64,000 nucleotides of DNA from an uncultured Methanosarcinales archaeon (GTDB taxonomy: Archaea > Nanobdellota > Nanobdellia > Woesearchaeales > DATDXC01). The stretch covers positions 11,143-75,142 of the forward strand of contig CAZDZV010000006.1 of assembly GCA_964510025.1 (NCBI GenBank), given 5' to 3'. The notes under the pieces are model-generated. The model had not been told where the DNA came from. It did no database searches and saw only the letters and a program-made list of their open reading frames with translations. The position numbers and the translations under genes are program-made. Shown here piece after piece: positions 17,883 to 46,229 of the stretch. Numbering within the stretch: position 1 is the stretch's first letter; the number at the start of each line of letters is the position of its first letter.

Positions 17883-18718
17883 AGGTTGATTTCGATTTCC
17901 ATACCCATACTGACGTATCTGATGGTAGCTTAAGCCCTTCTGCCCTGGTCAGAAAAGCCAAGCGTGAAGGATTGAGGCTTATTGCGATAACAGACCACGA
18001 CAATATTGACGGTATACCTGAAGCAGTTGAGACTGGCAGGAAGATAGGTATTGATGTCATTCCGGGTGTGGAGATTAGCATTGACTTCAAGGCTACGATG
18101 CATATGTGCGGCTACTTCATCGACATAACTGATACCCAGCTCAGAAAAGCCCTGAAGTTTGTGCAGGATGCTCGCAGAGACAGAAATCCTCAGATTATCG
18201 ATAAGCTGAACAAGCTGGGCATGGATGTGAGGATTGAAGATGTTAAGAAACATGCAGGCAGGGATCAGATTGGAAGGCCCCATTTCGCAAAAGCGCTTAT
18301 CGAGAAAGGCTATGTTACGACAAAAGAAGAGGCCTTTGAAAAATATCTGGCAAAAGGCAGGCCGGCGTATGTAGACAAGAAGCGGCTTGACAGGGAGAAA
18401 GCAGTGAAGACCATCCTGGATGCAGGAGGCACTGCTGTCCTTGCGCATCCCAAGCAGCTTCGCCTGGACACTGCCAAAGAATACAGGAAGCTTTTTATGG
18501 AGATGAAGGAATTGGGCGTCTCTGGCATCGAAGCATACTCAAGCTGCCATACAGAAGATGAAAATAAGATGTTCAGGGAGATCGCTGATGAGCTGGGGAT
18601 GCTTGTCACCGGAGGCAGCGACTTCCATGGTGACACAAAACAAGATGTTGAACTAGGGGAATTCGGAGAGAACATTGATATTGACGTGGATAAGTTGGTT
18701 GAAAAGATGAAAGCATGA
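17879..18718 (+). CDS. PHP-domain metal-dependent phosphoesterase (TrpH/YciV-like)
   Basis: FDFHTHTDVSDGSLSPSALV ... IAITDHDNIDG ... HPKQ, the PHP histidine/aspartate motifs. Overlaps the ParB-like gene by 4 nt. Confidence 0.75.
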   Translation: MKVDFDFHTHTDVSDGSLSPSALVRKAKREGLRLIAITDHDNIDGIPEAVETGRKIGIDVIPGVEISIDFKATMHMCGYFIDITDTQLRKALKFVQDARRDRNPQIIDKLNKLGMDVRIEDVKKHAGRDQIGRPHFAKALIEKGYVTTKEEAFEKYLAKGRPAYVDKKRLDREKAVKTILDAGGTAVLAHPKQLRLDTAKEYRKLFMEMKELGVSGIEAYSSCHTEDENKMFREIADELGMLVTGGSDFHGDTKQDVELGEFGENIDIDVDKLVEKMKA

Positions 18719-20118
18719 GAGAAAAGCACATTTTCTGGCTTCTGCTTGTTTTTATTGTATATATGCATTTTGAAGACCTGGTGAAGCTCTATTTCAATTA
18801 TCATCCGATAGCGCATGGGTTCAAGTATGTTTTTGCCCTGGTATTCTTCCTTATATGGATTTTTCAGATTGGGGTAGTTAATACAAGATTTACGATACCT
18901 CTGGCTGTTTATCTGTTCTTTGTATTTGTCCAGTTCATAAATCCCCTCATGTTTGGAAAACAGGGCTTTATGTTGTCGGTTATTGGGTCGCTTTACTATA
19001 TAGCATTTGTGCCCTTGTTTTTTGTTGCCCATCGGGTATTTGATATAGAAAGGCTGAAAAAGACACTATGGATTGTCTTAGGCTTGGCTTGCTTTTCAGC
19101 TCTGGCAGCGCATATACAGTTCTTCCTTGGCTGGCAGAGATACCTCCAGCTGATGCCTTACAGCCATGAGATGTTCCTGAGGACCAAAAACTTTGTTTTC
19201 CATGGGCCTTTGGCTTTCAGCGTAAAGCCCCCAAGATACTGGTATGTTGCAGGCATAATGATCAGCAGCATTTTTGTTCTTTCTGAAAAGAAAAAGCTCA
19301 TAGCTGGCTTTCTGGGCCTTAACTGCTTGCTTGCTTTGGCCCTTTCAGGAATGAGGTTTGCCATGGCAGCTTCTTTTTTTTCCCTGATGATAGTCTTTTT
19401 CTTTGGACTAAGAAAGCAGAAAATATCTAATGCGATGAGGATAGCTGCAGTTTTGATACTGCTATTGACTATGTTTTTCCCTTTCTCGATGCTTCCCAAG
19501 CAAAGGTACATTCAGTTCATCACAAATCCTGTTGGTACATATATCCAGCAAAGAGGGAGGATGTGGCCACAGTTTTTCAGGGATATCGTCAAATATCCGT
19601 TAGGCACAGGATTGAGGGCCGGAGGGCATATTGACACCGAAAGGTTTAAGGTACCTGATGTATCGATGCGTGCCGGAGAAAACTACATAGCAGTCATCGC
19701 TTCCCAGATTGGCATATTTGGGCTGATTGCAGTGCTTTGGCTATATGTTGCGATAGCCCGAAAATTCTATGAAAACTTGTCCCTGAGGAGATTCAGATAT
19801 TTTGTCAGTCTGGGCATATTTGCCCTGCTATTTTCCTTTATGTTTGAGGTGGGTTTTTTCCCGGGAGAAGGCCCGAGCTACTGGATGTTCTGGCTGTTTT
19901 CAGGTGTCTTGTTCAAAATAGATAAGATGGAGGTACAAAAGATGCGAAAAACATATTCTTTGGCTAGCGAAAGTTTTTTTCTCAGGGGAATTCCTGATGT
20001 AAGGGTATGGCTCTTACAAAGCAAATTTGTCAAGCTGGGCCATAGGATATTCTGTTGTTTCAGGAATTCAAGGTTTTTTAGGTTTATTGAGAATATAGTC
20101 AAGTATGCGGAAATTTAA
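18715..20118 (+). CDS. Polytopic membrane protein, O-antigen ligase/polymerase (Wzy_C)-like
   Basis: About 10-12 predicted TM helices with a large loop. First gene of the glycan locus; 4-nt overlap with the PHP gene. Confidence 0.5.
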   Translation: MREKHIFWLLLVFIVYMHFEDLVKLYFNYHPIAHGFKYVFALVFFLIWIFQIGVVNTRFTIPLAVYLFFVFVQFINPLMFGKQGFMLSVIGSLYYIAFVPLFFVAHRVFDIERLKKTLWIVLGLACFSALAAHIQFFLGWQRYLQLMPYSHEMFLRTKNFVFHGPLAFSVKPPRYWYVAGIMISSIFVLSEKKKLIAGFLGLNCLLALALSGMRFAMAASFFSLMIVFFFGLRKQKISNAMRIAAVLILLLTMFFPFSMLPKQRYIQFITNPVGTYIQQRGRMWPQFFRDIVKYPLGTGLRAGGHIDTERFKVPDVSMRAGENYIAVIASQIGIFGLIAVLWLYVAIARKFYENLSLRRFRYFVSLGIFALLFSFMFEVGFFPGEGPSYWMFWLFSGVLFKIDKMEVQKMRKTYSLASESFFLRGIPDVRVWLLQSKFVKLGHRIFCCFRNSRFFRFIENIVKYAEI

Positions 20119-20893
20119 GGTCCTGGTTGCCATACTATCGCTGATTGTCGTCGTGGAACTAGTTTTGAGGTTATTCGGTTTTGGGAACCCTGTGCTCTAC
20201 GTTGAGGACCCGGATATAGGGTATCTGCCGAAAGCCAATCAAAGCATATACAGGTTTGGCAACAAAATATACTACAATGAATATCATCAAAGGTCTGATG
20301 ACCTGATGGCAGATCCAGACTATAGGGTATTTATGTTGGGTGATTCTGTCCTGAATGGTGGGACCTTAATAGACCAGAAAGATACAATCAGTGAGATATT
20401 AGAGAGGCAGTTAAATTCATTCTGTAATTGTAAAGGCGAGGTCCTAAGCGCATCTGCCAAAGGATGGGCAATAGAAAATGAGTATGAATACCTTAGAAAA
20501 TTCGGCACTTTTAATTCAAGTCTGATTATATGGGTGATAAATGAAGGTGATTTGTACCAAAAAAAGAATTTGGGCCGAGACTATCCGTCAAAACCTTACT
20601 TATTTGCTTTGTCTAAGGTATTTTTCCACTATCTGCGCCCGAGAAAATCCGCTTCTGGATCCCAGAATCCGCCGTTGTCCTTTCTTTCACTTTTGAAGAC
20701 TGACTCTCAAGTCGTTATAGTGCAAATACCTAAAAGAAGATCTACTTCAGGAAAGCTGGATATTCAATTAGAAAGAATTGATATCAGGCTTAGTGACAAT
20801 GCGTACAGGGATGATATCCACCTTAACAGGCAAGGCAATTATATTGCCAGTGAAATTATATTTTCCACTATTAAGGACAAAATATTAGACTGA
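20105..20893 (+). CDS. SGNH/GDSL-like hydrolase (possible glycan O-acyl esterase/transferase)
   Basis: N-terminal TM anchor, then FMLGDSVLNGG (a GDSx block). Confidence 0.45.
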   Translation: MRKFKVLVAILSLIVVVELVLRLFGFGNPVLYVEDPDIGYLPKANQSIYRFGNKIYYNEYHQRSDDLMADPDYRVFMLGDSVLNGGTLIDQKDTISEILERQLNSFCNCKGEVLSASAKGWAIENEYEYLRKFGTFNSSLIIWVINEGDLYQKKNLGRDYPSKPYLFALSKVFFHYLRPRKSASGSQNPPLSFLSLLKTDSQVVIVQIPKRRSTSGKLDIQLERIDIRLSDNAYRDDIHLNRQGNYIASEIIFSTIKDKILD

Positions 20894-20937: not shown

Positions 20938-21762
20938 ATGGAAGGATATTTGATAATAGCAGCTTACCAACAAAAGTTCCTTGAGATGGCCTCGAATCTA
21001 GCACTATCGATAAGGTTGAAGGATGACAGGCCAATAGCAATCGCAGTTAAGGACATTAAGGTTGATCCAGGCTCTAAAAGAATATTTGATCACATAATTG
21101 AGATACCGCATGAAAAGTCCAGAAAGGCGCATCTTAATAAGTTTATTATGAATGAACTTACCCCTTTCAGCAAAACGATGTACATTGATGCAGATTGCCT
21201 AATGGTCAAGGATGATATTTCTATTATTTGGAAAAAGCTAAAGAAATACAATTTCACAGTACAGGGGACCAAGGTGGAATATGGAAACCATAGAGGGATT
21301 GACGTTTTAAATGTCAAAGACAAACTTGGCATTCCTTATTTTGTAAAGTCAAATAGCGGATTAATTTATTTTGATAAAACTAAAAAAACAAAGAAAGTTT
21401 TTGAGAAATTGAATTGGTATTTGTTGAAAGATGAAAAGATACTGCGTGTTCCATTTCGCGGTCAAATCAAAGATGAGACTTATATCGGTGCTGTAATGGG
21501 GCACCTTGAGCTTGAACCATTTCCAGTTGTATTTAGACATTATTTTCAGCTCAAGCAATGGATGCAGTGTGTATCAGCTAGGTATTGTGCAGAGATCGAT
21601 GTTTTGAAAGGAAAATCCAAGATAACCTTCCGAGATGGCCATACTGATAGCCCAACGGTCGCGCACTTTGTCGGCTTTGTAGGCAAAAGGCAGCTTTATT
21701 TAAGGGAATCGAATAGGCTAAGAAAAGAATTTGGATTTTCTAAAAATAAGATTTTATGCTGA
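20938..21762 (+). CDS. GT8-like DxD nucleotide-sugar transferase (paralog family 1 of 3)
   Basis: YLIIAAYQQKFLEMASNLALSI ... KTMYIDADCLMV. GT-A DxD architecture shared with 26088-26915 and 26912-27667. Confidence 0.35.
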   Translation: MEGYLIIAAYQQKFLEMASNLALSIRLKDDRPIAIAVKDIKVDPGSKRIFDHIIEIPHEKSRKAHLNKFIMNELTPFSKTMYIDADCLMVKDDISIIWKKLKKYNFTVQGTKVEYGNHRGIDVLNVKDKLGIPYFVKSNSGLIYFDKTKKTKKVFEKLNWYLLKDEKILRVPFRGQIKDETYIGAVMGHLELEPFPVVFRHYFQLKQWMQCVSARYCAEIDVLKGKSKITFRDGHTDSPTVAHFVGFVGKRQLYLRESNRLRKEFGFSKNKILC

Positions 21763-22667
21763 ATAGACCAAGTTGTACATTATCATTCTTCGTGGCAAGA
21801 ACAGATGTCTCATTTATGATGCATACCATACCCCATCTGGTGCGGATGGCTAATTATCCATTTAGTAAAAAAATTATTTTTGTAGATTCAAAGGATCTGA
21901 AAAGCGACAAGAAAAACCGGGCTAATATAGGGACACTAGAAGAAGTCAGAGATAAATGCAAGGAGCTGCAAGATCAGAATATAATTGATGAGATTATTGA
22001 CTTTGATTATACACATCCTATCGTAGCAGAGACATACAGAAAATATTTTGAAAAAAATTTGAGACATACCCATAATTGGAAAGGTTACCCGGTATATGGA
22101 AATCTTTTTGCAATTGAAAACTGCGATTCAGATTATTTATTGCATTTTGATAGCGACATACTAATGTATCAAGACAACAATTTTAGCTGGGTTGATGCGA
22201 GTATGAAGATAATGGGGGGTAATTGTAACATAGTTACGACCAGGCCCCTCGCAGGCCCATCTGAAAAATCTTCGCCAGGATATCACTTAAGCCAGACATT
22301 TGGAAGTCGATGCTATTTGATACATACTAAAAGACTTAAACAGATATTACCCCTGCCCCTTTTGGTAAGCTTCAGACGCACAAGAATACTGGATTCCTTT
22401 CCCCAGCGAATCAAAAAAAAGTTATATTTGAGTTTCGAAAAGGGCGAGCTGGATTCATGGGAATTGATGGTTGGAGCAGCGCTGAGGAAAAACAGGAAAT
22501 TTCGGGCAATACTATCTTCAGATAAGGCGTGGACTTTGCACCCAAAGGATCATGGTGAGCAATTTATTAGGTTGCTTCCCGAAATTATCCAGAGGATTGA
22601 GCATAAAGATTTTCCTTTGGAACAGGAAAAGAAATACGATCTTGATTTGAATTTATGGACTCGATAA
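21756..22667 (+). CDS. Hypothetical protein, possible glycosyltransferase (HFDSDILMY DxD-like)
   Basis: Embedded in the glycan locus with a DxD-like motif. No confident family. Confidence 0.25.
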   Translation: MLNRPSCTLSFFVARTDVSFMMHTIPHLVRMANYPFSKKIIFVDSKDLKSDKKNRANIGTLEEVRDKCKELQDQNIIDEIIDFDYTHPIVAETYRKYFEKNLRHTHNWKGYPVYGNLFAIENCDSDYLLHFDSDILMYQDNNFSWVDASMKIMGGNCNIVTTRPLAGPSEKSSPGYHLSQTFGSRCYLIHTKRLKQILPLPLLVSFRRTRILDSFPQRIKKKLYLSFEKGELDSWELMVGAALRKNRKFRAILSSDKAWTLHPKDHGEQFIRLLPEIIQRIEHKDFPLEQEKKYDLDLNLWTR

Positions 22668-23683
22668 GAAAGAAACCAAAAATATTTTTCTATTTGCCTG
22701 AGGAATATCTTCCGCAAGGCCAGATACCAGAGGATTATACAGAATTCTGGGACTACTGTGTAAAGAACTGGAATGGGTACTATGCGGGAATTCTAGTCTG
22801 GACCCTTAAGACGTACCTATTGCTTAAAGATTATGTTTCATGCAAATTAGTTACAAACATTCCTGAAAAAGGGATAATCATTGCTCATAGAAAATCCTTA
22901 CCTGCAAAACCGAAGCCGAAGCAGCTCTTTGTTTGCATCAAGGCAGATAAGTCAGTACACCCATATTCGCAGATCCATCTGGTGCAAAATTCTTGTGACT
23001 GTCTCTTCAAAAGGTCACCCGGACTGTGGCAGACATACTATGTCCCCCGTTGGCCCCAGGATAAATTGAAGCCAAGGTCAAAATCGAGAGGCACAAGACT
23101 AGAGAATGTTGGTTATTATGGGGTAAGACGGGAGCTGGCCAAAGAGTTACAGTCTAAAAAATTTGAGAGACTTATGCAATCGAACGGTTTTAAGTGGCAT
23201 ATTTTTTCCAATCCGAAGAAGTGGGTTGATTACAGCAAAACAGATGCTATTGTAGCGGTTAGGAGTTTTAAAAAACAGGGATTCAATAATAAGCTAGCGT
23301 CTAAACTATATAATGCGTGGCGAGCAGGTGTACCTGTATTATTGGGGCCAGAGACAGCTTATCAAAATGAGAAAAAAAGCCGGTTTGATTATATGGAAGT
23401 AAATTCAGCAAATGAAATAATCTCAGCACTTAAAAGCTTAAGAAAGAATCATAGGTTATACAAGCAAATGGTGAATAATGGAATTATCCGATCCAAAGAG
23501 GTCAGTCAGAATAAGATTATCGGTCTTTGGAAATCTTTTTTGGTGAATGTTGCAGTTCCTGCATATCGAAGGCACTGTAAAAATCGTATTTCCACTAACA
23601 TGTTCCTGCTGCAGAGATATTTTTATAACGTATATTATCAACTTCATTTTAAATTTAGGTCGAAAATTTTGTATGGCATATAA
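22655..23683 (+). CDS. Hypothetical glycan-locus protein
   Basis: 342 aa. C-terminal region vaguely GT-B-like (VPVLLGPETAYQNE). No confident family. Confidence 0.25.
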   Translation: MDSIRKKPKIFFYLPEEYLPQGQIPEDYTEFWDYCVKNWNGYYAGILVWTLKTYLLLKDYVSCKLVTNIPEKGIIIAHRKSLPAKPKPKQLFVCIKADKSVHPYSQIHLVQNSCDCLFKRSPGLWQTYYVPRWPQDKLKPRSKSRGTRLENVGYYGVRRELAKELQSKKFERLMQSNGFKWHIFSNPKKWVDYSKTDAIVAVRSFKKQGFNNKLASKLYNAWRAGVPVLLGPETAYQNEKKSRFDYMEVNSANEIISALKSLRKNHRLYKQMVNNGIIRSKEVSQNKIIGLWKSFLVNVAVPAYRRHCKNRISTNMFLLQRYFYNVYYQLHFKFRSKILYGI

Positions 23684-24194
23684 TAAAATATTTGGGATAG
23701 GTCTTTCAAAAACTGGGACTACATCTTTAGCTAGGGCCTTGGAGATTTTGGGATTTAGGACTGTTCACTCCCCTAGGAAGTCCTATTTATATGAGAAAAG
23801 AAGAGGCCTTCCATATTTCTCTACATTAGAAGAATATAGGGGTTTTACAGATTTTCCTTGTTGGGCAATATACAAAGAAGTGGATATTTTGTATCCGGGC
23901 AGCAAATTTATCCTAACTGTTCGAAATCCTCATGATTGGTACGTCAGCAGAAAGAAGCATTATAAAGCAAGACTGAAACAGGATATCAAACTTGATTGGG
24001 ATATGAGCAAAAAGTCAATGGATAAACTTCTGAAACATAACCAAGAAGTGATGGGGTATTTTAAGAGAAGAAAAAAAGATTTACTAGTGCTTGATATTGC
24101 AAAGGGAGAAGGTTGGGACAAGCTGTGCCGGTTCCTGCAGGTCCAAGAACCTTCCTTAACATTCCCCCACCTTAACAAGTCAGAATGTCTGTGA
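23673..24194 (+). CDS. Sulfotransferase-family protein (PAPS-dependent)
   Basis: 5'-PSB-like GLSKTGTTSL and 3'-PB-like VRNPHDWYVS. Start moved to ATG 23673 (MAYNKIFGIG...); the ORF-track start at 23547 lies inside the preceding gene. Confidence 0.6.
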   Translation: MAYNKIFGIGLSKTGTTSLARALEILGFRTVHSPRKSYLYEKRRGLPYFSTLEEYRGFTDFPCWAIYKEVDILYPGSKFILTVRNPHDWYVSRKKHYKARLKQDIKLDWDMSKKSMDKLLKHNQEVMGYFKRRKKDLLVLDIAKGEGWDKLCRFLQVQEPSLTFPHLNKSECL

Positions 24195-25051
24195 AACCTA
24201 TTGTTTCCGTGATTATACCTGTCTATAATGATTTCAGGATAGTAAAATGTCTAAAAGCTCTGAAGAATCAGACATATCCAAGAGAAAGATATGAGATCAT
24301 AGTAGTTGACAACAACTCTGACAAACACTTCCTGACAAATCTTAGGAAATATAAAATAAGATTATTGTCTGCAAAAGAAGGGACTTATGCAGCCAGAAAT
24401 AAGGGGATTAAGGCAGCCAAAGGGGATATATTAGCATTTACTGATGCTGACTGCATACCTGCAAAAGAGTGGATAGAAAAAGGGGTAGATGCTATTCGCA
24501 ATCAGGCAGCTGGATTAGTAGCAGGAAAAATTGAGTTGTTTCCAAAAGGAAACAGGCCGACCATTGCAGAGATGTTTGAAATCATTACTGGATTTAGGCA
24601 AGAACTTTATGTTAAAAAATGGCATTTTGGAGCTACAGCAAATGTCTTTACAAAGAAGCAAGTGATTAATAAGGTTGGGCCTTTTAATGATTACCTAATA
24701 TCTGGTGGTGACTTAGAATTCGGAAAAAGGATTTTTGAAGCAGGCTATATGCAAATCTATGCACCTGAAGTTATTGTCTGGCATCCGGCAAGAGGCTCTG
24801 TCTTGAAGATATTGGGAAAGCATCGCAGGGTAGTGAGGGGCATAAACTGCATACAAAAGACTAAATCCATAAAGAAATTATTGGTGGATATTAAGGATGA
24901 CTGGCCGCAGCTGGCAGATTTTAGAGAAATTTTAGGGGATCGACGCCTAAAAAAATTTAGGTTAAAGGCATCTATATTTTTTATTTTACTCCTTGTTCGT
25001 TTTGCACGAACATCACAAAGAATATTTTTTATAGACCGCAAAAATAGCTAA
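24185..25051 (+). CDS. Family 2 glycosyltransferase
   Basis: VSVIIPVYNDFRIVKCLKALKNQTYP ... YEIIVVDNNSD ... TDADCIP. Confidence 0.75.
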   Translation: MSVKPIVSVIIPVYNDFRIVKCLKALKNQTYPRERYEIIVVDNNSDKHFLTNLRKYKIRLLSAKEGTYAARNKGIKAAKGDILAFTDADCIPAKEWIEKGVDAIRNQAAGLVAGKIELFPKGNRPTIAEMFEIITGFRQELYVKKWHFGATANVFTKKQVINKVGPFNDYLISGGDLEFGKRIFEAGYMQIYAPEVIVWHPARGSVLKILGKHRRVVRGINCIQKTKSIKKLLVDIKDDWPQLADFREILGDRRLKKFRLKASIFFILLLVRFARTSQRIFFIDRKNS

Positions 25052-26091
25052 TGAGAAGGAAAGCAGCGCTTTTATTCCCAACATTCCATGGTGGAGGTGC
25101 GGAAGCAGTATGTGCCTGGATATTAGATGCTTTGAAAGGCAGATATGATATAGATTTATTCACCTGTCAAAAAATTACGGCAGAAGAACTTAACAGGTTT
25201 TATGGAACCAAATTATCCAGAAACTCGTTTAGGCTTATTTATAGCAAGCTATTCAATGCGCTTATCCGGATTAACAAAATTTTGCCTTTTGATCCTAATC
25301 TTAGAAGCAGACTGCTAAAAATTACCTTTGAAAAATTTAAGCAAGATTATGATCTTGTTATAAATGGGAAGGATGAAATAGACATCAGTGAAAAAAGTAT
25401 TCATTATATCCATTTTGCAGGCAATCTCATTAAGGGCAAACCATTGCATAAGCATCGTTACATAGCGAATTCCAGAAGTACGGCTAAGCGTGCTGGCTTT
25501 AGGGATATAGGGGTAGTCTATCCGCCCGTGTGTAAAAGGTTTAAAAAAGTTCCCTGGAAATCAAAAGAAGAAGGCTTCATAATAATAGGCAGGATTACAG
25601 AAGAAAAGGGTACACATAAGGCAATTCAAATACTGCAGAAAGTGAGGGCCAAAGGATATGAGGTTAACCTCCATATCGTAGGGACAGTTTATAATTGGCG
25701 CTATTTTGGTTTGGTGAAAAAGATGGCCAGGAAAAGGGATTGGGTGATCCTACATAAGTCAATTTCTAACTATCGGCTTAAAAAGTTGTTGGAAAAGAAT
25801 AAATATGGCATACATTGTAAAGGCGGTGAGCCCTTCGGTATCGATCCTGCGGAAGTGCTTTATTCAGGCGGCATACCGTTTGTACGTAATAAAGGGGGGC
25901 AGACTGAGATTGTCGGAGACAAAAGGCTGATATTCGGGTCCGAGGATGAGGCTGTAGAGAAGATATGCAAGGTGCTTAGCTCAAAAAAAATTCAGGCTCA
26001 TTTATTAAAAAAACTAAATAAAAGAAAAAAAATATTGGGATGCGACAGGTTTAGAGAGAATTTTTTGAAGGCTATCCACAAAATGCAATGA
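25051..26091 (+). CDS. Family 4 (GT-B) glycosyltransferase
   Basis: EX7E-type block EPFGIDPAEVLYSGGIPFV. Confidence 0.65.
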   Translation: MRRKAALLFPTFHGGGAEAVCAWILDALKGRYDIDLFTCQKITAEELNRFYGTKLSRNSFRLIYSKLFNALIRINKILPFDPNLRSRLLKITFEKFKQDYDLVINGKDEIDISEKSIHYIHFAGNLIKGKPLHKHRYIANSRSTAKRAGFRDIGVVYPPVCKRFKKVPWKSKEEGFIIIGRITEEKGTHKAIQILQKVRAKGYEVNLHIVGTVYNWRYFGLVKKMARKRDWVILHKSISNYRLKKLLEKNKYGIHCKGGEPFGIDPAEVLYSGGIPFVRNKGGQTEIVGDKRLIFGSEDEAVEKICKVLSSKKIQAHLLKKLNKRKKILGCDRFRENFLKAIHKMQ

Positions 26092-28598: not shown

Positions 28599-28612
28599 TC
28601 TGCAAGAAGAAA

Positions 28613-38170: not shown

Positions 38171-38935
38171 ATGTTAATCAACATGCTAAAAAAGAGTGAA
38201 TATGTGCGAAAAAAATACCATGGCATAAAAGATTTTTTTTATGGCCTTAAATACTTTTCAGGAACTAAAAAAGGTCTAAAATACTTTATAGTTGTATGTC
38301 AAGCAAGGACAGGCAGTACATTATTGATGGACTTATTAGGTTCACACCCGAATATTAAAGTAGACCATCACAGCTTTTTTAAGATAGATAATTTGAAGCA
38401 TAAAATAACCCAGCAAAAAGCAAATACGCGTAAATTCTGCAGGGGATTCAAGTTTAGGTTGTACGATGATGGAAAGGAATATGATTTTAGCAAAATGTAT
38501 CAATTCTTTTGCTCTCTGGATAATGCAGATATTAAGATGATCCACCTAATCAGAAAAAACCAGCTAAGACAGTCCCTTTCCGCAGAAGTGGTAGACTATT
38601 ACAAGAAAATTGGATTGACAAGGCTTCATTCAAAAGATAAGAATCCTGAGATACCGAAAATAAAGGTAGATATCCAAAAGACGCTAAATCGGATTAATTA
38701 TTCAAGAAAGTTGCTAAAGGCAGAGAATGATCTGCTCAAGCATTTCCGCCATCATACAGTTAATTATGAAAAAGATCTTTTGCATTCAACCGACCATCAA
38801 AAAACATCAGACAAGATATTTGCATTTTTGGGCCTCCCCTCTGCTAAGGTCAGTTCAGATTATCGAAAGACAAGTATTGACAACCCATCAGAATATATTG
38901 ATAATTTTAATCAATTGAGGTTGCACTACGAATGA
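38171..38935 (+). CDS. Stf0-type sulfotransferase-like protein
   Basis: VVCQARTGSTLLMDLLGSHPNI (P-loop-like RxGSTxL) and IHLIRKNQLRQSLS resemble Stf0-family PAPS-binding blocks. Confidence 0.5.
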   Translation: MLINMLKKSEYVRKKYHGIKDFFYGLKYFSGTKKGLKYFIVVCQARTGSTLLMDLLGSHPNIKVDHHSFFKIDNLKHKITQQKANTRKFCRGFKFRLYDDGKEYDFSKMYQFFCSLDNADIKMIHLIRKNQLRQSLSAEVVDYYKKIGLTRLHSKDKNPEIPKIKVDIQKTLNRINYSRKLLKAENDLLKHFRHHTVNYEKDLLHSTDHQKTSDKIFAFLGLPSAKVSSDYRKTSIDNPSEYIDNFNQLRLHYE

Positions 38936-40059
38936 AAGTCCTGGAAGTGATATCATCACTGAATCCTAGAACAGGCGGCACTGCTGAATCCCTAAAGCAA
39001 CTGGAAAAGATACTGTCCAGCAAGCATACTATAGAAATACTCTGTCTTGATAAACCAAAATCTCCATGGCTAAGGGATTTCAAAAGCAAGATATATGCCT
39101 TGGGTCCAGCAATCACCAGATATGCATTTTCTAAAAGGCTTCTAGGTTGGCTAAGAAAGAATGCAGTCAGCTATGATTGCATTATAGTCAATGGCATATG
39201 GCAATATGTGGGTTTTGCTGTATGGCTCATCCTAAAAAATTCCGAAACACCGTATTTTATCTATGCACATGGAATGCTGGATCCTTGGTTTAAAAAAAAC
39301 TATCTTATCAAGCATTTAAAGAAGTCAATTTATTGGCCTATCCAATACAGAATACTAAAAGACGCAGAAGCGGTTGTTTTTAACTGCAAGGAAGAAGCCC
39401 GGTTAGCCTCAAAATCATTCTGGCCAAATAGATGGAATTCAAAAATAATTAGTCATGGCATCTTTAAGCCGCCTGTCAACAAATCTCATCTTGTTGCCGG
39501 CTTTTTGGACAGATACAAAATACCTAGAAACCAGAATTTAATCCTCTTTTTGGGACGCATACACGAAAAAAAAGGCATTGATAACCTGGTGAAATCATTC
39601 GCAGAACTTAGCTCCGATTACCGCTTAATCATTGCCGGTCCTGAGTCAGCCTACGGCAATAGGATGAAAAGGCTTGCAAAAAAACTCGGTATCAGCCACA
39701 AAATTACATGGACAGGGATGCTCGAAAACGACCTAAAATGGGGTGCTTTCTATGCATCAGATGCATTTATTCTTCCTTCTCATCAAGAAAACTTTGGGAT
39801 TGCAGTAGTAGAAGCTTTGGCATGTGGATTGCCTGTCTTGATTTCAGATAAGGTGAATATATGGAAGAAGATTTATGATTTCAGTGCGGGTTTTGTTGAG
39901 AATGATAGCCTTGAAGGAACTTCAAAATTGTTGAAAAGATGGCATCTAGCTAGTGAAGAGAAAAAGAAAAAGATGGCTAAGTCAGCGAAAATTTGTTTTG
40001 AGTCTAACTTTGATATAAACAAGAATATCAGCCAGTTGATTAGGCTTGTCAGTAAATGA
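38932..40059 (+). CDS. Family 4 (GT-B) glycosyltransferase
   Basis: ENFGIAVVEALACGLPVLISD. Confidence 0.7.
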   Translation: MKVLEVISSLNPRTGGTAESLKQLEKILSSKHTIEILCLDKPKSPWLRDFKSKIYALGPAITRYAFSKRLLGWLRKNAVSYDCIIVNGIWQYVGFAVWLILKNSETPYFIYAHGMLDPWFKKNYLIKHLKKSIYWPIQYRILKDAEAVVFNCKEEARLASKSFWPNRWNSKIISHGIFKPPVNKSHLVAGFLDRYKIPRNQNLILFLGRIHEKKGIDNLVKSFAELSSDYRLIIAGPESAYGNRMKRLAKKLGISHKITWTGMLENDLKWGAFYASDAFILPSHQENFGIAVVEALACGLPVLISDKVNIWKKIYDFSAGFVENDSLEGTSKLLKRWHLASEEKKKKMAKSAKICFESNFDINKNISQLIRLVSK

Positions 40060-41021
40060 ATGTGAAAAAAGACATCTCAATAGTCATCCCGACATATAAC
40101 GGCTCAAGGTACCTGCCCGAAGTGTTAAACGCTTTGAGGAATCAGGAAGGCCTAAAGGAGATATCCTGGGAGGTTATTGTCGTAGATAATAACAGCACAG
40201 ACACTACGCCGAAGATCGTCGAAGAATTTCAGAAAAAATGGGATATGGACAATAAATTAAGGTATCTTGTTGAAAAAAGACAAGGCGCAGCGTATGCGAG
40301 GGAAACTGGTGTAAGAAATGCAAAAAGCAAGATTATTGGGTTTCTTGATGATGATAATATTCCTGAGAAGAACTGGATCCTGGAAGCTTATAGATTTGGG
40401 TCTGAACATCATGAAGCAGGAGCATGGGGGAGTAGGATCAAAGCAAGATATGAAAAAATGCCGCCTGAAAATTTCGATAGCATAAAGATGTATTTTGCGA
40501 TTATGGAAAAAGGGGAAAATGCTTATTGTTCTGAAGCTAAAAAATTTGTCTTGCCCCCTAGTGCTGGTCTTGTGGTAAGAAAAGATATATGGCCCGCATC
40601 ACCTTTATTGCTAACTGGAAGAACAAAGGAAACATGGCTAGCTGGTGAAGATATAGAGCTATTAGTTAGAATACAGAATAAAGGCTATGGAATATGGTAC
40701 AATCCAAGGATGGAAATTACACATATAATACCTGCTGCAAGGCTTGAGCCAGAATATGCCATTAACTTGATGAAAGGGATTGGATTATGCAAATACATAA
40801 CCAGGATGTTGAGACAATATGTATTGGCTAGACCTGTGGCCATAGTGGGATATTGTATTTCAGATTTTTTAAAGATGATGAAATTTATGCTCAGGTTCCG
40901 AGCCAAAATAATAAAAGATGCTCTGCTGAAGGCTGAATTTTTTTTATATCTGTACAGTTTTTATAGCCCTTTTTATTTTTTATTTAGATACCCAAAAAAG
41001 TTTTTTCTGATAGGAAAATGA
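40056..41021 (+). CDS. Family 2 glycosyltransferase
   Basis: ISIVIPTYNGSRYLPEVLNALRNQE ... WEVIVVDNNSTDTT ... LDDDNIP. Confidence 0.75.
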   Translation: MNVKKDISIVIPTYNGSRYLPEVLNALRNQEGLKEISWEVIVVDNNSTDTTPKIVEEFQKKWDMDNKLRYLVEKRQGAAYARETGVRNAKSKIIGFLDDDNIPEKNWILEAYRFGSEHHEAGAWGSRIKARYEKMPPENFDSIKMYFAIMEKGENAYCSEAKKFVLPPSAGLVVRKDIWPASPLLLTGRTKETWLAGEDIELLVRIQNKGYGIWYNPRMEITHIIPAARLEPEYAINLMKGIGLCKYITRMLRQYVLARPVAIVGYCISDFLKMMKFMLRFRAKIIKDALLKAEFFLYLYSFYSPFYFLFRYPKKFFLIGK

Positions 41022-41833
41022 CAAAAATTAAAGATGCTGTTGATAAAGCATATATCATTTGTCATAGCTCATCCACTGAAGAATTATCCAAGAGTTTAAC
41101 AAAGAACAATTTAGATGTAGAAGAATTAAGACAAAAACCTAAAAAAAGTTGGAATAAATATTCAAACATATACAAATGCTTGCTTAATCACGAAAGGGCA
41201 TGGAAAAAAGCACTGAACAATGAATTTACATTGATAGTTGAAGAGGATTTTGTACCTGTTAGTAATTTTGGAGACTTTTCTTTACCATTTGATCCAAAAA
41301 AGGATTTTGGAATCTGCTGGATTTATTACTGCGGACCAAGGATTTATAGTGCTTCAGACACAGGCTATATAGAAGGTGGTGCAACTTCCCTAGTTGCATA
41401 TATAATAAACAAAAAAAGCGCAGCGCTTCTAATCGAATTTGCCAAAAAAATGAAAAAAACTATGAAGGGAAAGTATTATCCATTTGATTCAGATATAGAC
41501 GGTTATTTTATAAAGAAAGGATTGAAAAACTATATCGCTTTCAGAAACTATGGCGAGCATGGCGGGCTTCCGAATCCTGAACACAGGCAGAATAAAACAG
41601 GAAACCAAGGTATACACAGGGCTGATGTGTTGGCCGGAAAACTTGATTTTATGCCCCTTTATTCCAAGCACAATATCATTATATATATCGTTGTAAGGAT
41701 AAAGGCAAGAATCAAGGGACTAGTACGTTTATTCAGCGGAAGATATTTAAGGCCAAAGATCTTCTGCTCATCAAGCTTTCCGTTGAGGCTTTTGAAGTGT
41801 GCGATTAAAAGGCATTTGACATGGAACCTATGA
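41018..41833 (+). CDS. GT25-like (LPS-type) glycosyltransferase
   Basis: AYIICHSSST ... HERAWKKALNNEFTLIVEEDFVP parallels GT25 H..AW ... (I/L)EDD blocks. Confidence 0.4.
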   Translation: MTKIKDAVDKAYIICHSSSTEELSKSLTKNNLDVEELRQKPKKSWNKYSNIYKCLLNHERAWKKALNNEFTLIVEEDFVPVSNFGDFSLPFDPKKDFGICWIYYCGPRIYSASDTGYIEGGATSLVAYIINKKSAALLIEFAKKMKKTMKGKYYPFDSDIDGYFIKKGLKNYIAFRNYGEHGGLPNPEHRQNKTGNQGIHRADVLAGKLDFMPLYSKHNIIIYIVVRIKARIKGLVRLFSGRYLRPKIFCSSSFPLRLLKCAIKRHLTWNL

Positions 41834-42384
41834 AAGACTTGCTTAAAGGGACAGTTGCATCTGCCGGCCCAAGTTTTAGCTTGAGCAACAGGTTTAGAAG
41901 AGCTGTCTGGAATCTGGTATATCATGTTATGTTCAGGTTATCTCCGGTGTTTTTTCATGAGTGGCGCTCTATCCTGCTAAGGCTGTTCGGGGCAGAAATC
42001 GGCAAAGGCTGCCACATATACCCAAGAGCAGCAATATGGGCCCCGTGGAACCTTAAAACAGGTGATTTTGTAGGCATAGCCGATGATGTGAAGCTTTATA
42101 ACCAGGCAGAGATAGTCATAGGTGACCTCACAGTAATCTCACAAGGGTCCCATATATGTACCGGCACACATGATTATCAGAAAAAGGCGTTTCCGGTCAT
42201 CATCAAGCCAGTTACCATAGGAAAAAGGGCCTGGATATGCGCTGATGCATTCATACATCCGGGAGTCAGCATCGGCGAAGGGGCAGTTGTCGGAGCTAGA
42301 TCTGTTGTGACTAGAGATATTAAGAAATGGACAGTCTGCGCTGGAAATCCGTGCACTGAGATTAGGAAAAGAAATGTTATATAA
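41821..42384 (+). CDS. Hexapeptide-repeat acetyltransferase (WcaF/LbH family)
   Basis: Left-handed beta-helix repeats IGKGCHIYPRAAIWAPWNLKTGDFVGIADDVKLYN ... IGEGAVVGARSVV. Confidence 0.75.
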   Translation: MEPMKDLLKGTVASAGPSFSLSNRFRRAVWNLVYHVMFRLSPVFFHEWRSILLRLFGAEIGKGCHIYPRAAIWAPWNLKTGDFVGIADDVKLYNQAEIVIGDLTVISQGSHICTGTHDYQKKAFPVIIKPVTIGKRAWICADAFIHPGVSIGEGAVVGARSVVTRDIKKWTVCAGNPCTEIRKRNVI

Positions 42385-43222
42385 TCTTACTATAGTCATT
42401 CTCACATTCAATTCAGCAAGAACAATCAACGAAGTTGTTTCTTCATGCAGGCATTTGTCTGAAAAAATACTGGTTGTGGACTCATACAGCAAGGATGACA
42501 CTGTTAAGATTGCAAGGTCTCTCGGATGCAAAGTCCTGCAGCATACGTTCAAGGATTACTCGACGCAAAGGAACTGGGCGCAGCAGAAAGTAAGAACTCA
42601 ATGGGTTCTGCATCTCGATAGTGATGAGATAATCTCCAAGAAACTGGCTGACAGCATCCAGGCAGCTTTCTCAAAAAAATCAGATAATGACGGCTATCTT
42701 ATGAAAAGGCTTACTTATTTTATGGGCAAGCCAATCAGATTTGGCCACATGAACCCAAACTGGCACCTGAGGCTTTTTAAGGTCAAGACCGGATATTGTG
42801 AGGACAGGTTGTATGACCAGCATTTTATCGCAAAAGGCAATCTCGCAAGATTGGACGGCTACATATTGGATGTTCCCAAAAAATCTGTAGAAGAATGGAT
42901 AGATAATCATAATCGATGGTCGACAGCAGAAGCAGAGGAGCTCTTGTCTGGAAATTCTTTATGCAAGAGCCTGCCTGGGAAACTTAACAAGGATCCCAGA
43001 ATAAGGAAAAGGCTGATAAAGAATAATGTGTATTACAGGCTACCGCCGCTTGTCAGGCCTTTTATCTTCTTTGGTTACAGCTACATCGTGCGGCTGGGCT
43101 TTTTAGATGGACGGGCGGGATTTATATACAGCATACTCCAGTCTTTCTGGTTCCGGTTCCTGGTGGATGTGAAAATTCTAGAAAGGAAAATCTTTATAAA
43201 ATACGCTAGATTCAGGAGATAA
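42374..43222 (+). CDS. Family 2 glycosyltransferase
   Basis: LTIVILTFNSARTINEVVSSCRHLSEKILVVDSYSKDDT ... LDSDE. Confidence 0.7.
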   Translation: MLYNLTIVILTFNSARTINEVVSSCRHLSEKILVVDSYSKDDTVKIARSLGCKVLQHTFKDYSTQRNWAQQKVRTQWVLHLDSDEIISKKLADSIQAAFSKKSDNDGYLMKRLTYFMGKPIRFGHMNPNWHLRLFKVKTGYCEDRLYDQHFIAKGNLARLDGYILDVPKKSVEEWIDNHNRWSTAEAEELLSGNSLCKSLPGKLNKDPRIRKRLIKNNVYYRLPPLVRPFIFFGYSYIVRLGFLDGRAGFIYSILQSFWFRFLVDVKILERKIFIKYARFRR

Positions 43223-43223
43223 G

Positions 43224-44444
43224 ATGAAGTTAGTGGATGATAAAGGGAAAGTCTTGGGAAGGATAAACATATTTGATCTGATGATAGTCATACTGGTTTT
43301 TTTGCTTCTGTTGCAGGGGACTATCCATATAGCTAGGAACTGGACACTTTCCGAGCCTGAACAGGTTCTTGTTAAGATAAAAGGTGAGCTCTGCAATGTT
43401 GATTCCAGCCTGAAAACAAGAGATTGTGGCTCTTCATTGCCAGAATATTTTTACGACAATATCTACATCGGACAGGCTATGAGAAGCAAGGGCGAAATTA
43501 TAGCCAAGGTTGATAAGATAGAAGCCATAGGTGAAACAGAAGCCAAAAAGATTGTTCTCACGCTTGAGGTCAGGGCACAGCTTCAGGACAATGAGCTTAC
43601 CTTTCTGGGCCAAGAGCTGAAGATCAACAGAAGATTTGTATTCGCTACGCCGACGATTAATTTTGGGGTGAATGTCATATATCTTGACAGCAATATCATT
43701 GAGCAGGCAGCCGAGACCATAACCGATGCAACTGCAAACCGGCAAACCAGGATATATGATGGCTGGGATTCTGTCATAGGGGAGTTGTGCACTTTGGATG
43801 AGGCAGATCACGCAAAAGAATGTGGAATAGATATTCCGGACTGGTTTGTCAATCGTATCGAAAATCTGGGGACTATTGAAGATAAGAATGCGATTATCAA
43901 GGTTCAGGAGATAAGGCAGATGATGGTAGACCAGATGACAACTGTCATCATCCTTAACTTAACCACCTATGACAATGAAGCCAAAGAAAAGATGTTTCAG
44001 GGGGTACCTTTGAAGATAAACAATAGGCTGGTTGTAAAAAGTCCCCAAATTAATTTTGGGGTAAAGATATTGAATATCGGGACTGGGCTTCCTGAAGAAT
44101 CCAGGCTTCACGAAAAAACAATAATACTGAAAATAGAAAATCTGGAGCCGGAAATATTCAACAGTATACAGGAAGGCATGACAGAGAAAAACAACAACAA
44201 TGAAGTTATAGCTGAGATAGTTGGCAAGACAGTCCAGCCCCACATTTTGCTGTTGACTACAGAAGATGGCCAGCTGCTGACAGAAGAGCATCCGATAAAC
44301 AAGGATATCACCCTGGAGACCCTTATAAAAGCATCGAAATCCAGGGATTACTATTATAACGGGCAGCTCGTTAAGATCGGAAATCCCCTCACAGTAAAGA
44401 CCGATATTATGGATTTAAATGGAGAGATAATAGCGATATCTTGA
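43224..44444 (+). CDS. Hypothetical N-terminally membrane-anchored protein with internal duplication
   Basis: TM (IFDLMIVILVFLLLL). Repeated LKINRRFVFATPTINFGVNVIYL and LKINNRLVVKSPQINFGVKILNI modules. Confidence 0.3.
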   Translation: MKLVDDKGKVLGRINIFDLMIVILVFLLLLQGTIHIARNWTLSEPEQVLVKIKGELCNVDSSLKTRDCGSSLPEYFYDNIYIGQAMRSKGEIIAKVDKIEAIGETEAKKIVLTLEVRAQLQDNELTFLGQELKINRRFVFATPTINFGVNVIYLDSNIIEQAAETITDATANRQTRIYDGWDSVIGELCTLDEADHAKECGIDIPDWFVNRIENLGTIEDKNAIIKVQEIRQMMVDQMTTVIILNLTTYDNEAKEKMFQGVPLKINNRLVVKSPQINFGVKILNIGTGLPEESRLHEKTIILKIENLEPEIFNSIQEGMTEKNNNNEVIAEIVGKTVQPHILLLTTEDGQLLTEEHPINKDITLETLIKASKSRDYYYNGQLVKIGNPLTVKTDIMDLNGEIIAIS

Positions 44445-45595
44445 TTGAAGTGAATATTCTTACAAGGGATTTCTTCCCAGACTACAGTGCGGTGGCTAAA
44501 AAGATGACCGGGCTAGCAGAGGATCTTACAGCTGCCGGCATAGACGTTCAGGTATACACAGCTAATCCGCAGTATTACTGCAGAGAAAAGCCTGAAAAGC
44601 GCAGAAATATCAGAAGGGTTTTATGCACCTCGTTCGATAAGGATAATCTCTTATTGAGGGCCATTAATGAGGTTAGCTTTGGAATATCAATATTTGCTAT
44701 CTTGCTTTTTTCGAAAAAAAAGATGAATATAATCCCCTCTCTTCCATTTTCGCTTCAGCTCTCTGCTCTCCTTTTAAGGAAAATAAGAAACCAGGATTAC
44801 ATCATAATAAACTATGAGATTATGCCCGAACTTATGTGTTCCTCCGGTCTAATGTCATATGATGGCCCCTTCTTCCGGATGCTCAACAAGATAGCCAAGA
44901 AAGTGCTTGATAACGCCAGGTGCATTATTACTTTAACTGCATCTATGAGCAAAAAGCTGGAAAGCAAGGTCAGAAAAAAGATAGTGACTATCCCGAATTG
45001 GACTGACACAGATGTCTATTACCCCATCAAAAGAAAAGAAAACGAATTCTTGAGAAGAAACAAGCTTTCAGATAGCTTCGTTGTATCATACTCAGGTAAT
45101 TTCGGCAGGTACATGGATTTTGATACTGTACTTAAGGCTGCGGAGCTTTTGCCCCAGATAAGATTTCTTTTTATAGGTAATGGGGCGCAAAAGGGCAGAA
45201 TAACCAAGGCAGACAATATTTTTTATCATGATTATCTGCCAAACTCAAGGATCAATGAATCTCTGAATTCCGGAAATATAGCATTGGTGCTTACAAACCA
45301 GAAAGATGACGATTATGTTATGCCGAGCAAGATCCTTGACCTGATGGCTGCTGGAAGGCCAATAGTTGCTGTATCAAGAAATTCGGAGATTAAAAAGATA
45401 ATTGCCAGGTCAAGGAACGGGTTTGTTGTAAATCCTGGAGAACCAGATAGCCTAAAAAGAGCTATTCTGGCCCTGAAGAACGACAAAAAATTGCAGAAAG
45501 AAATGGGCAAAAACTCAAGGGATTATGCTGCTAGACATTTTTCCAGAAAGAAGATTACCGGGCAGTATGTTGAACTGCTGAAGAAAAATTTATAA
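44441..45595 (+). CDS. Family 4 (GT-B) glycosyltransferase
   Basis: GT-B C-terminal block ILDLMAAGRPIVAVSRNSEIKKII. Coupled to neighbours. Confidence 0.6.
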   Translation: MIEVNILTRDFFPDYSAVAKKMTGLAEDLTAAGIDVQVYTANPQYYCREKPEKRRNIRRVLCTSFDKDNLLLRAINEVSFGISIFAILLFSKKKMNIIPSLPFSLQLSALLLRKIRNQDYIIINYEIMPELMCSSGLMSYDGPFFRMLNKIAKKVLDNARCIITLTASMSKKLESKVRKKIVTIPNWTDTDVYYPIKRKENEFLRRNKLSDSFVVSYSGNFGRYMDFDTVLKAAELLPQIRFLFIGNGAQKGRITKADNIFYHDYLPNSRINESLNSGNIALVLTNQKDDDYVMPSKILDLMAAGRPIVAVSRNSEIKKIIARSRNGFVVNPGEPDSLKRAILALKNDKKLQKEMGKNSRDYAARHFSRKKITGQYVELLKKNL

Positions 45596-45617
45596 ACTAC
45601 CTGCCTAGGCGAAGATT

Positions 45618-46229
45618 ATGGGCATTCTGAAAAGGGTTTTGGATTTTGGGATAGCTGCCATAGCTTTAGCTGTTTCTCTGCCGGTCTTCATCACAATTTC
45701 GGCCCTTATAGTGGCAGATTCAGGCTTCCCTGTTTTTTTTAGTCAGCGGAGGGTAGGCCATAGGCAGAAAAAATTTACCCTGTATAAATTTCGCACAATG
45801 GTTAAAGATGCCGAAAAGATCAAGCACAGGTACAAGAAGCTTGATTATACTGACGGGCCTGTTTTTAAGATTAGAAAAGATCCAAGATACACAAAAATAG
45901 GGCTTTTCCTTGCAAAGACGAGCTTGGATGAGCTACCTCAGCTTTTCAACGTCCTGAAAGGTGACATGTTCATTGTTGGGTTTAGGCCGCCTACACCTGA
46001 AGAGGTAAAAGAGTATAAAGAATGGCAGCTTGAGCGTTTTAAGGGCTATCCTGGGATTACATCTCTTTGGGCCATATCGGGGATGCACAATATAAGGTTT
46101 GATGACTGGATAAAGATGGATATAAAATACAGCAAAAAAGCCAATTTTTTTCTGGATATGAAAATAGTTGCAAAAACAGTCACAAAAATCATAGAAAACA
46201 TATATGCTTCACTTAAACACGGTCTGTAG
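45618..46229 (+). CDS. Bacterial-type monotopic phosphoglycosyltransferase (PglC/WbaP C-terminal, Bac_transf)
   Basis: 203 aa, single N-terminal re-entrant helix. RRVG...FTLYKFRTM, MFIVGFRPPTPEE (VGPRP block) and KPGITSLWAISG match the sugar-transferase superfamily signature. Confidence 0.8.
   Translation: MGILKRVLDFGIAAIALAVSLPVFITISALIVADSGFPVFFSQRRVGHRQKKFTLYKFRTMVKDAEKIKHRYKKLDYTDGPVFKIRKDPRYTKIGLFLAKTSLDELPQLFNVLKGDMFIVGFRPPTPEEVKEYKEWQLERFKGYPGITSLWAISGMHNIRFDDWIKMDIKYSKKANFFLDMKIVAKTVTKIIENIYASLKHGL

Follow-up and report, generated by a model that had tools for sequence, protein, structure and literature searches.

The sulfated exopolysaccharide (EPS) synechan is reportedly made by the xss cluster of Synechocystis, as Maeda et al. 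are said to have described in 2021. In archaea, the only glycan sulfotransferases known to have been characterised so far are Agl30 and Agl31 of Halobacterium salinarum, which have a sulfatase/alkaline-phosphatase fold, belong to an AglB-anchored cluster and have been argued to act on a dolichol-phosphate-linked tetrasaccharide (PMC11980604). Sulfotransferases of the type that uses 3'-phosphoadenosine-5'-phosphosulfate (PAPS) remain uncharacterised in archaea (PMC11625862). Here we describe a glycan locus of 31 genes (positions 17070-46229, plus strand) in a stretch of 64,000 nt from an uncultured Methanosarcinales archaeon (GTDB lineage Archaea; Nanobdellota; Nanobdellia; Woesearchaeales; DATDXC01; assembly GCA_964510025.1, contig CAZDZV010000006.1, positions 11,143 to 75,142), hereafter called the window. 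The sulfation of an archaeal glycan is common to this locus and the H. salinarum system, but in contrast to the sulfatase fold of Agl30/Agl31 the enzymes predicted here belong by family to the classical PAPS type (Sulfotransfer_1/3/4). Our reading, to which we give about an even chance, is that the locus makes a large sulfated and acylated heteroglycan on a polyprenyl- or dolichyl-phosphate carrier, which is flipped by an ABC exporter and transferred by a WaaL-like enzyme. The underlying logic of a phosphoglycosyl transferase (PGT), glycosyltransferases (GTs), an ABC flippase and a WaaL-like enzyme is textbook bacterial glycobiology as known from pgl, O-antigen and EPS systems and was probably acquired in part by gene transfer, and some parts of the locus are unusual for archaea.

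The most distinctive biochemical feature of the locus is its sulfation chemistry, which comprises three PAPS-type sulfotransferases and a homologue of phosphatases for 3',5'-adenosine bisphosphate (pAp), all of them overlooked in a preliminary description of this DNA. All locus genes given below lie on the plus strand. Sulfotransferase 1 (23673-24194) matches Pfam Sulfotransfer_4 with 113.2 bits and sulfotransferases in the PDB with E 4e-14. Sulfotransferase 2 (29473-30303) is of the carbohydrate type (Sulfotransfer_1 and Sulfotransfer_3, 56.4 and 55 bits), and its best PDB match 3rnl (E 8e-49) is followed by the heparan-sulfate enzymes NDST/3-OST at E 1e-9 to 1e-12. Sulfotransferase 3 (38171-38935; Sulfotransfer_3, 29.1 bits) sits after the only sizeable gap of the locus (117 nt). 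The 5'-phosphosulfate-binding and 3'-phosphate-binding motifs are present in all three (KTGTTS/RNPHDWYVS, KAGTTS/RNPIDRAYS and RTGSTL/RKNQLRQSLS, respectively), and none of them contains a transmembrane (TM) segment. The PHP-family phosphoesterase encoded at 17879-18718 is a candidate pAp phosphatase: its best PDB match is 2yb1 (E 1.4e-38), which we take to be the characterised pAp phosphatase Cv1693, followed by RNase AM (7ug9), and its top NCBIfam model is NF041577 ('3',5'-nucleoside bisphosphate phosphatase', 240.7 bits). The gene overlaps by 4 nt on either side and is translationally coupled with both neighbours, and a role in pAp recycling would fit the three PAPS users of the locus.

Regarding the layout, the preliminary description had placed 31 head-to-tail genes between 18715 and 46229. 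In this interval we counted 29 open reading frames (ORFs), which run without a break on the plus strand and are 99.3% coding. The number of 31 is reached only when the block of coupled genes is extended upstream to 17070, adding a ParB-like gene (17070-17882) and the PHP gene, each with a 4-nt overlap with its downstream gene. After refinement of four start codons (for example from 32152 to 32221, and to a TTG at 36956), 24 of the 30 junctions between 17070 and 46229 were found to overlap by 1-20 nt, and the sole intergenic gaps measure 1, 6, 14, 22, 44 and 117 nt. The array on a single strand was borne out, and on the opposite strand no sizeable ORF inside the block could be given a family. 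The window is devoid of tRNA genes and Rfam elements, and scans with Rfam and for bacterial promoters and terminators gave nothing above chance. At the right end the same junction of GT4, PGT and helix-turn-helix (HTH) genes is present in an independent Logan contig (L001). We infer that the block represents one long operon of 31 genes and about 29 kb. The G+C content at third codon positions (GC3) is host-like at both locus ends (0.43-0.52; housekeeping genes 0.46-0.52). Across most of the intervals 20.9-32 kb and 38-41.8 kb it drops to 0.26-0.40, a mosaic of the kind typically left in glycan loci by the exchange of central cassettes. All window proteins tested were singletons at 90% identity.

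The last gene of the block (45618-46229) encodes a small monotopic PGT of the PglC/WbaP catalytic-domain type, the putative initiating enzyme. It matches Pfam Bac_transf with 196.8 bits against a cutoff of 27 and in the PDB WbaP with 115 bits and PglC with 101 bits. The block SLDELPQLFNVLKGDM is the same as in WbaP, and the alignment with WbaP (8t53) is also identical over TSLDELPQLFNVLKGDM, the conserved SLDELPQ block with the catalytic Asp-Glu dyad. With its predicted donor and transfer activity the enzyme would prime the carrier lipid. Bacteria of many phyla account for all 80 of its best-matching genomic relatives, with 38-51% identity. Synteny with the bacterial loci of the closest PGTs was considered and dismissed, as similarity was limited to a generic 25-40% between GT2 and GT4 proteins; no sulfotransferase or Wzy-like match was found in those loci.

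Export is assigned to a fused ABC exporter with transmembrane and nucleotide-binding domains (TMD-NBD) of the MsbA/ABCB fold (35152-36963; ABC_membrane 79.9 bits, ABC_tran 122.6 bits). Its best half-transporter match in the PDB is MsbA (302 bits), and it shares 33% identity over 546 residues with the exporter of an EPS-type cluster of Coleofasciculus (L092). Because a GT-B family of the locus and the related exporter share such EPS-type clusters, we tie this protein to glycan export and not to drug efflux, and propose it as the flippase for the lipid-linked glycan. The 31 ORFs gave no match to a Wzx/MOP flippase (Polysacc_synt/MOP), and the only polytopic proteins among them are the exporter and the Wzy_C-like protein discussed below. 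Likewise a Wzz/PCP co-polymerase was without match in the locus, and the Wzm/Wzt type of exporter (ABC2_membrane permease with Wzt_C ATPase) is absent from the window. The PglC-like gene and the MsbA-type exporter had both been recognised in the preliminary description, and both assignments hold.

A divergent polytopic membrane protein of the Wzy_C/WaaL fold, which may be a ligase, an O-oligosaccharyltransferase or a polymerase, is encoded at 18715-20118, in agreement with the Wzy/O-antigen-ligase-like protein noted before. Its Pfam Wzy_C match is marginal (32.3 bits against a cutoff of 31.7; relatives 19-54 bits). The top match of the predicted structure is the ligase WaaL, with the polymerases FtsW/RodA as next-best matches. 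Besides the protein itself only four homologues were found among 5.8 billion proteins, and a profile search against 1.84 billion cluster representatives yielded eight at E<=1e-30, with a score gap between 236 and 105 bits. Residues H133, R214, R280 and R301 and the PxGxGLRxG block are invariant in this subfamily. Two of its members are much longer (P0184 with 950 aa and P0185 with 1139 aa); P0184 is matched by the profile in three stretches and shows two Wzy_C stretches, which suggests a tandem duplication, and P0185 carries an N-terminal extension of about 320 residues without assignment.

The following gene (20105-20893) encodes an N-terminally anchored SGNH/GDSL hydrolase. It has no Pfam match itself and was assigned, in line with the SGNH hydrolase proposed before, by its GDS and DDIH (DxxH) motifs and by its homologues: those in the metagenome loci L082 and L083 are 36% identical over about 270 aa and carry Lipase_GDSL, and shorter N-terminal matches in L084, L085 and L087 are 57-61% identical, the L087 homologue again with Lipase_GDSL. 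With its one TM segment the protein may act as an extracytoplasmic glycan esterase or acyl-transfer enzyme. A single-pass membrane protein with a duplicated DUF4330 ectodomain (43224-44444; 75.1 bits in two stretches, TM segment at residue 8), missed in the preliminary description, is a likely accessory partner of the WaaL-like enzyme.

Extension of the glycan can be assigned to 15 solid GTs, namely eight GT2, six GT4 and one GT-B seen by structure only, to which five GT-A-like candidates (GT8-like, GT25-like or DxD-only) may be added. Seven GT2 proteins have clear matches to Pfam Glycos_transf_2 (24185-25051, 96.6 bits; 28613-29476, 124.5 bits; 30310-31218, 120.8 bits; 32221-33129, 110 bits, with the refined start; 33126-34034, 66.8 bits; 40056-41021, 106.5 bits; 42374-43222, 59.1 bits), and an eighth is divergent (27648-28598; 28 bits, E 2.4e-6), with an hhalign value of 94.8% to the profile of the window GT2 proteins. 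The GT4 proteins, of the GT-B type, are located at 25051-26091 (Glycos_transf_1, 60.3 bits), 31215-32231 (Glycos_transf_1, 53.3 bits), 34022-35155 (136.8 bits), 36956-38053 (Glycos_transf_1 68.2 bits and Glyco_transf_4 52.3 bits, start refined to TTG), 38932-40059 (109.6 bits) and 44441-45595 (57.4 bits). The GT-B fold protein at 22655-23683 belongs to no Pfam family; those of its homologues that bear names are cyanobacterial or proteobacterial, and its family adjoins a fused ABC exporter and GT4 genes in the Coleofasciculus cluster and in the metagenome loci L093/94. The paralogues are just 20-44% identical and therefore not recent duplicates, and a recent GT duplication was rejected.

The five candidates comprise a GT8-like protein at 20938-21762 (DxD motif DADC; Glyco_transf_8 E 0.022 and Nucleotid_trans E 0.079, both sub-threshold), two possible GT-A proteins at 21756-22667 (DSD motif; no Pfam or NCBIfam match, no hhalign support) and 26912-27667 (DAD motif; no significant Pfam, NCBIfam or hhalign match), a GT8-like member of the Npun_R2821/R2822 family at 26088-26915 (DTD motif; NCBIfam NF045582 263.8 bits against a cutoff of 250, Pfam GT8 weak at E 0.056) and a GT25-like protein at 41018-41833 (EED motif; Glyco_transf_25 E 0.087). 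As GTs they were not confirmed by Pfam at E<=10, NCBIfam, hhalign against the window GT2 profile or tblastn against plasmids, and the seven ORFs without a Pfam match are those starting at 20105, 20938, 21756, 22655, 26088, 26912 and 41018. The GT context of the protein at 26088-26915 suggests that the Npun_R2821/R2822 family (NF045582, no stated function) is a family of glycosyltransferases. Against the roughly 19 GTs counted earlier stand 15 solid ones and five candidates; all six GT4 proteins were recovered by Pfam, the approximately nine GT2 became eight, and the GT25-like and GT8-like assignments stay at the level of candidates, with Pfam E values of 0.02-0.09 or no match. The hexapeptide acetyltransferase was found as described, a left-handed beta-helix acyl/acetyltransferase at 41821-42384 (Pfam Hexapep, 47 bits).

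The first gene of the block, likewise missed before, encodes an orphan ParB/Noc-type protein (ParB_N and HTH_ParB, 59.5 and 44 bits), which matches Spo0J/Noc in the PDB with E 1e-24 to 1e-21. It keeps the GxRR arginine patch (GNRRFEAA), and its box III/ENLQR box is diverged. A ParA partner was found neither in the window nor in the related metagenome loci L082-L090. A scan of metagenomes with the single ParB sequence gave nothing, and an alignment of two sequences gave three loci. ParB-like homologues of 56-76% identity head glycan or ABC operons in L082-85, L089 and L090. In L082-85 the ParB-like gene (58% identical) is followed by Wzm, Wzt with Wzt_C, the Wzy_C-like gene and one or two SGNH genes. 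The same order is seen in L087, but there only the last 48 residues of the ParB-like protein are present (46% identical), and a Wzt_C ATPase is accompanied by a 282-aa ORF without Pfam match in the Wzm position. In L089 the ParB-like gene (76% identical) precedes an ABC ATPase, and in L090 (56% identical) a single strand carries Cdc48, ParB-like, GT4, GT4, GT8 and GT4 genes. There are thus four independent contexts in which a glycan or export operon begins with a full-length ParB-like gene, and L087 adds a partial fifth; in L086 and L088 a DUF4330 homologue lies directly upstream of the Wzy-like gene. Outside the window, the module of ParB-like, WaaL-like, SGNH and DUF4330 genes was seen on just a few metagenome contigs of low GC, beside Wzm/Wzt ABC exporters, and viral contigs held no relative of either the ParB-like or the Wzy-like gene.

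This recurrence is consistent with a role of the ParB-like protein as regulator of the locus. In place of a parS-like site, which was not found, the 135-nt region upstream of its gene (16935-17069) contains only a tandem direct repeat, TTCAACCATTT (16992-17027, two copies 18 nt apart), a candidate operator of which the window holds exactly two copies and which is not conserved upstream of the ParB-like genes in L082/L090. Literature searches on ParB-like genes in glycan loci and on DUF4330 found none, and those on monotopic PGTs in archaea and on Npun_R2821 gave nothing usable.

Taken as a pathway, the PGT would prime the carrier lipid at the cytoplasmic face, the GTs would build a glycan of roughly 15-20 sugars, and the sulfotransferases and the acyltransferase would decorate it in the cytoplasm, with the PHP enzyme clearing the inhibitory by-product pAp. 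The ABC exporter would flip the completed lipid-linked glycan, and the WaaL-like enzyme, aided by the DUF4330 and SGNH proteins, would pass it as one block to a protein or lipid acceptor at the surface, a step of transfer and not of polymerisation of repeat units. Regulation of the locus would fall to the orphan ParB-like protein. In a crude hydropathy scan the sulfotransferases, the acyltransferase and the GTs showed no TM segment or at most one or two hydrophobic stretches, and we therefore place them on the cytoplasmic side, where the glycan would be sulfated on its carrier before export. With 15-20 GTs, a single large glycan without repeats seems more likely than a short repeat unit.

Several observations weigh against this reading. 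The status of the block as one operon derives from gene overlaps only, and the five GT-A-like candidates are unverified. None of the ORFs in the 64-kb window matched a gene for PAPS synthesis (sat, cysC, cysDN), and the metabolism encoded by DPANN genomes is reduced. The score of sulfotransferase 3 is marginal (29.1 bits against a cutoff of 27), and that of the PHP protein (240.7 bits) lies below the NF041577 equivalog cutoff of 400, with RNase AM in the same family. The structural model of the WaaL-like protein is only moderate (pLDDT 67.9), a profile-to-PDB sequence search for WaaL gave no matches, leaving the catalytic residues unmappable, and the position that we tentatively equate with the 'HN' motif of WaaL has [DE]N[YW] in the subfamily. 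Moreover the Wzy_C fold cannot separate a ligase from a polymerase.

This last point leads to a Wzy-type capsule or EPS pathway, essentially the view of the preliminary description, in which the Wzy_C-like protein would polymerise flipped repeats into a long sulfated heteropolysaccharide, the ABC half-transporter would replace Wzx and the DUF4330 protein would be a co-polymerase or chain-length factor. The Pfam Wzy_C match speaks for a polymerase, as do one homologue that also matches PF01901 (O_anti_polymase), the FtsW/RodA polymerases as next-best structural matches and the recurrence of the single-pass DUF4330 partner beside the Wzy_C-like gene, as Wzz with Wzy. We nevertheless consider this pathway possible but rather doubtful, since the locus lacks a Wzx/MOP flippase and a recognisable PCP protein, 15-20 GTs far exceed the usual need of a repeat unit, and the top structural match is the ligase WaaL. 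In addition the homologues accompany Wzm/Wzt(Wzt_C) exporters, which handle finished polymers, in a pathway that needs a ligase and not a polymerase, and this counts for the ligase. Our provisional preference is therefore a transferase of the WaaL/PglL type that acts en bloc, which is no less likely than a polymerase of the Wzy type, on the basis of the missing Wzx, the ABC flippase, the link of the homologues to Wzm/Wzt and the structural match. The bacterial style of the pathway as first described agrees with the PGT and its bacterial relatives, the GT2 and GT4 proteins, the ABC half-transporter and the Wzy_C fold, but a capsule- or lipopolysaccharide-like polymer is not established.

It is also conceivable that the locus supplies a lipid-linked oligosaccharide for N-glycosylation by an AglB encoded elsewhere, similar to Campylobacter PglC/PglK, with the Wzy_C-like protein separate or accessory. 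The PglC-type PGT, the GT4 proteins and the ABC half-transporter mirror the pgl logic of C. jejuni, N-glycosylation is near-universal in archaea, and one nearby secreted protein (4112-5581, minus strand) has 20 sequons in 489 aa. This protein is the only one left of the many sequon-rich surface proteins reported earlier between 0.2 and 9.7 kb, and the idea that the locus builds their glycans consequently rests on it; most surface proteins nearby have 0-6 sequons, with a single one in each of the secreted proteins of 848 and 554 aa. We regard a supply of AglB as unlikely, as no STT3/AglB was found in any window ORF of at least 300 aa, in accordance with the earlier statement that the locus is not AglB-centred, and as the Wzy_C-like gene is translationally coupled within the operon and co-conserved with exporters in relatives. 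An artefact of assembly or binning, by which a bacterial polysaccharide locus was chimerically joined to archaeal DNA, could account for the bacterial nearest relatives of the PGT and named relatives of the GT-B protein and for the low GC3 in the locus centre (0.26-0.40 against 0.46-0.52 in housekeeping genes). Such a chimera is highly improbable in view of the archaeal genes on both flanks of one contig, the host-like GC3 at the locus ends, the right-hand junction in the independent Logan assembly and the ParB/WaaL-like/SGNH module on other low-GC contigs by archaeal-type genes (MJ0711_N domain, Cdc48).

The flanks of the locus carry genes for aIF5B with EFTU_D4, Trm1 and RtcA upstream and for a CTP-dependent riboflavin kinase, DUF460 and HerA downstream, all archaeal. 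Relatives of aIF5B (63-75% identical) are assigned, where named, to Nanoarchaeota, Nanoarchaeia or Woesearchaeota, one being just an 'archaeon', and the host is therefore a Woesearchaeales-like DPANN archaeon. In three related Woesearchaeal contigs the aIF5B-Trm1 core is kept and the locus is not present within the visible 10 kb; two of them carry other genes or break at the position of the locus, and the third ends too soon. As upstream neighbour of the locus, at 16287-16934 on the plus strand, lies a gene for a membrane-anchored winged-helix protein with a signal/TM segment, a CarboxypepD_reg-like ectodomain, a second TM segment and DUF7343/HTH_24 (Pfam DUF7343 54.7 bits; TM segments at residues 3 and 116). 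It is a possible sensor-regulator, whose membership in the locus is uncertain given the 135-nt gap to the next gene.

Among the neighbouring genes, the 848-aa secreted protein (228-2774) shows MopE-type Cu-binding motifs and Laminin_G_3. A small Sigma70_r4-like HTH gene (5578-6036, minus strand) is located upstream of the secreted-protein genes at 2767-5581 (minus strand), near aIF5B, and in two related Woesearchaeal contigs an equivalent HTH precedes giant ORFs of 3651 and 7336 residues (L095, 13683-21758; L096, 15992-21761), which may represent a conserved pairing of regulator and surface protein. The only other candidate for a large membrane enzyme in the window is a 654-aa polytopic PTPS_related protein (PF10131; 59724-61688, minus strand), possibly GT-C-like. 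The GC content falls to 0.29-0.33 at 52037-58977, compared with about 0.42 elsewhere, and this stretch resembles a mobile defence island, encoding a restriction-modification set of the DpnII type (DpnII endonuclease, D12 Dam-like methylase and N6_N4 methylase), two tyrosine integrases and an AAA_15/DUF3226 ATPase. At 46609-48657 (minus strand) two paralogues of 6,7-dimethyl-8-ribityllumazine (DMRL) synthase surround an unassigned 174-aa ORF, beside a CTP-dependent riboflavin kinase fused to a MarR-HTH, and some riboflavin metabolism is therefore kept in this DPANN genome.

DPANN archaea have genomes of about 1 Mb (the aIF5B of one relative is on a 1.0-Mb contig) and tiny cells, and as far as known they depend on contact with host cells. 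An operon of 29 kb, about 3% of a genome of about 1 Mb, for a single decorated surface glycan suggests that this glycan is central to attachment, recognition or protection. We know of no archaeal enzyme identified as responsible for O-glycosylation or for the ligation of glycans, and the rare WaaL-fold subfamily offers a specific candidate for attaching glycans in archaea independently of AglB. We further know of no description of ParB-type control of glycan operons, and the repeated position of the ParB-like gene at operon heads points to a role of ParB-fold proteins that is still unexplored. Very tentatively, and with considerable doubt, one may envisage a lineage-specific DPANN attachment system, in which the WaaL-fold enzyme with its DUF4330 and SGNH partners serves as archaeal O-oligosaccharyltransferase or lipid ligase for ABC-exported glycans, here PAPS-sulfated, and a ParA-less ParB was recruited as dedicated operon regulator. 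The significance of the locus would rise if the WaaL-like enzyme were an archaeal ligase or O-oligosaccharyltransferase, or if the ParB-like protein regulated the locus. Three classical PAPS-type candidates with a matched candidate enzyme for pAp recycling would add to Agl30/31, whose fold differs.

In comparison with known systems, the xss cluster is said to hold several PAPS-type sulfotransferases among GTs and a priming PGT in one locus, as here, a likeness drawn from its description. It reportedly uses Wzx/Wzy with PCP/OPX proteins, none of which were found in the window locus, and we know of no pAp phosphatase or ParB-like gene in it. Cyanobacterial envelope or EPS clusters of the HepA type, with a fused ABC exporter and GT4 genes, are much smaller than the window locus and have no sulfotransferases or WaaL-like gene in the stretches seen. 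ABC-dependent O-antigen pathways with the WaaL ligase and the PglL-type O-oligosaccharyltransferases of Neisseria and Acinetobacter likewise rely on enzymes of the Wzy_C family, from which the window differs by an exporter of the MsbA fold instead of Wzm/Wzt, by the lack of a sequence-level match to WaaL, by the tiny size of the subfamily (eight representatives) and by the archaeal host, in which no lipid A-core acceptor is expected. The pgl system of C. jejuni has in common with the locus a small monotopic Bac_transf PGT, cytoplasmic extension by GT-B enzymes, there the GT4 proteins PglA, PglJ and PglH, and a fused TMD-NBD ABC half-transporter as flippase, there PglK. In contrast to pgl, the window has a WaaL-fold enzyme in place of PglB/AglB, three to four times more GTs, sulfotransferases and an archaeal host.

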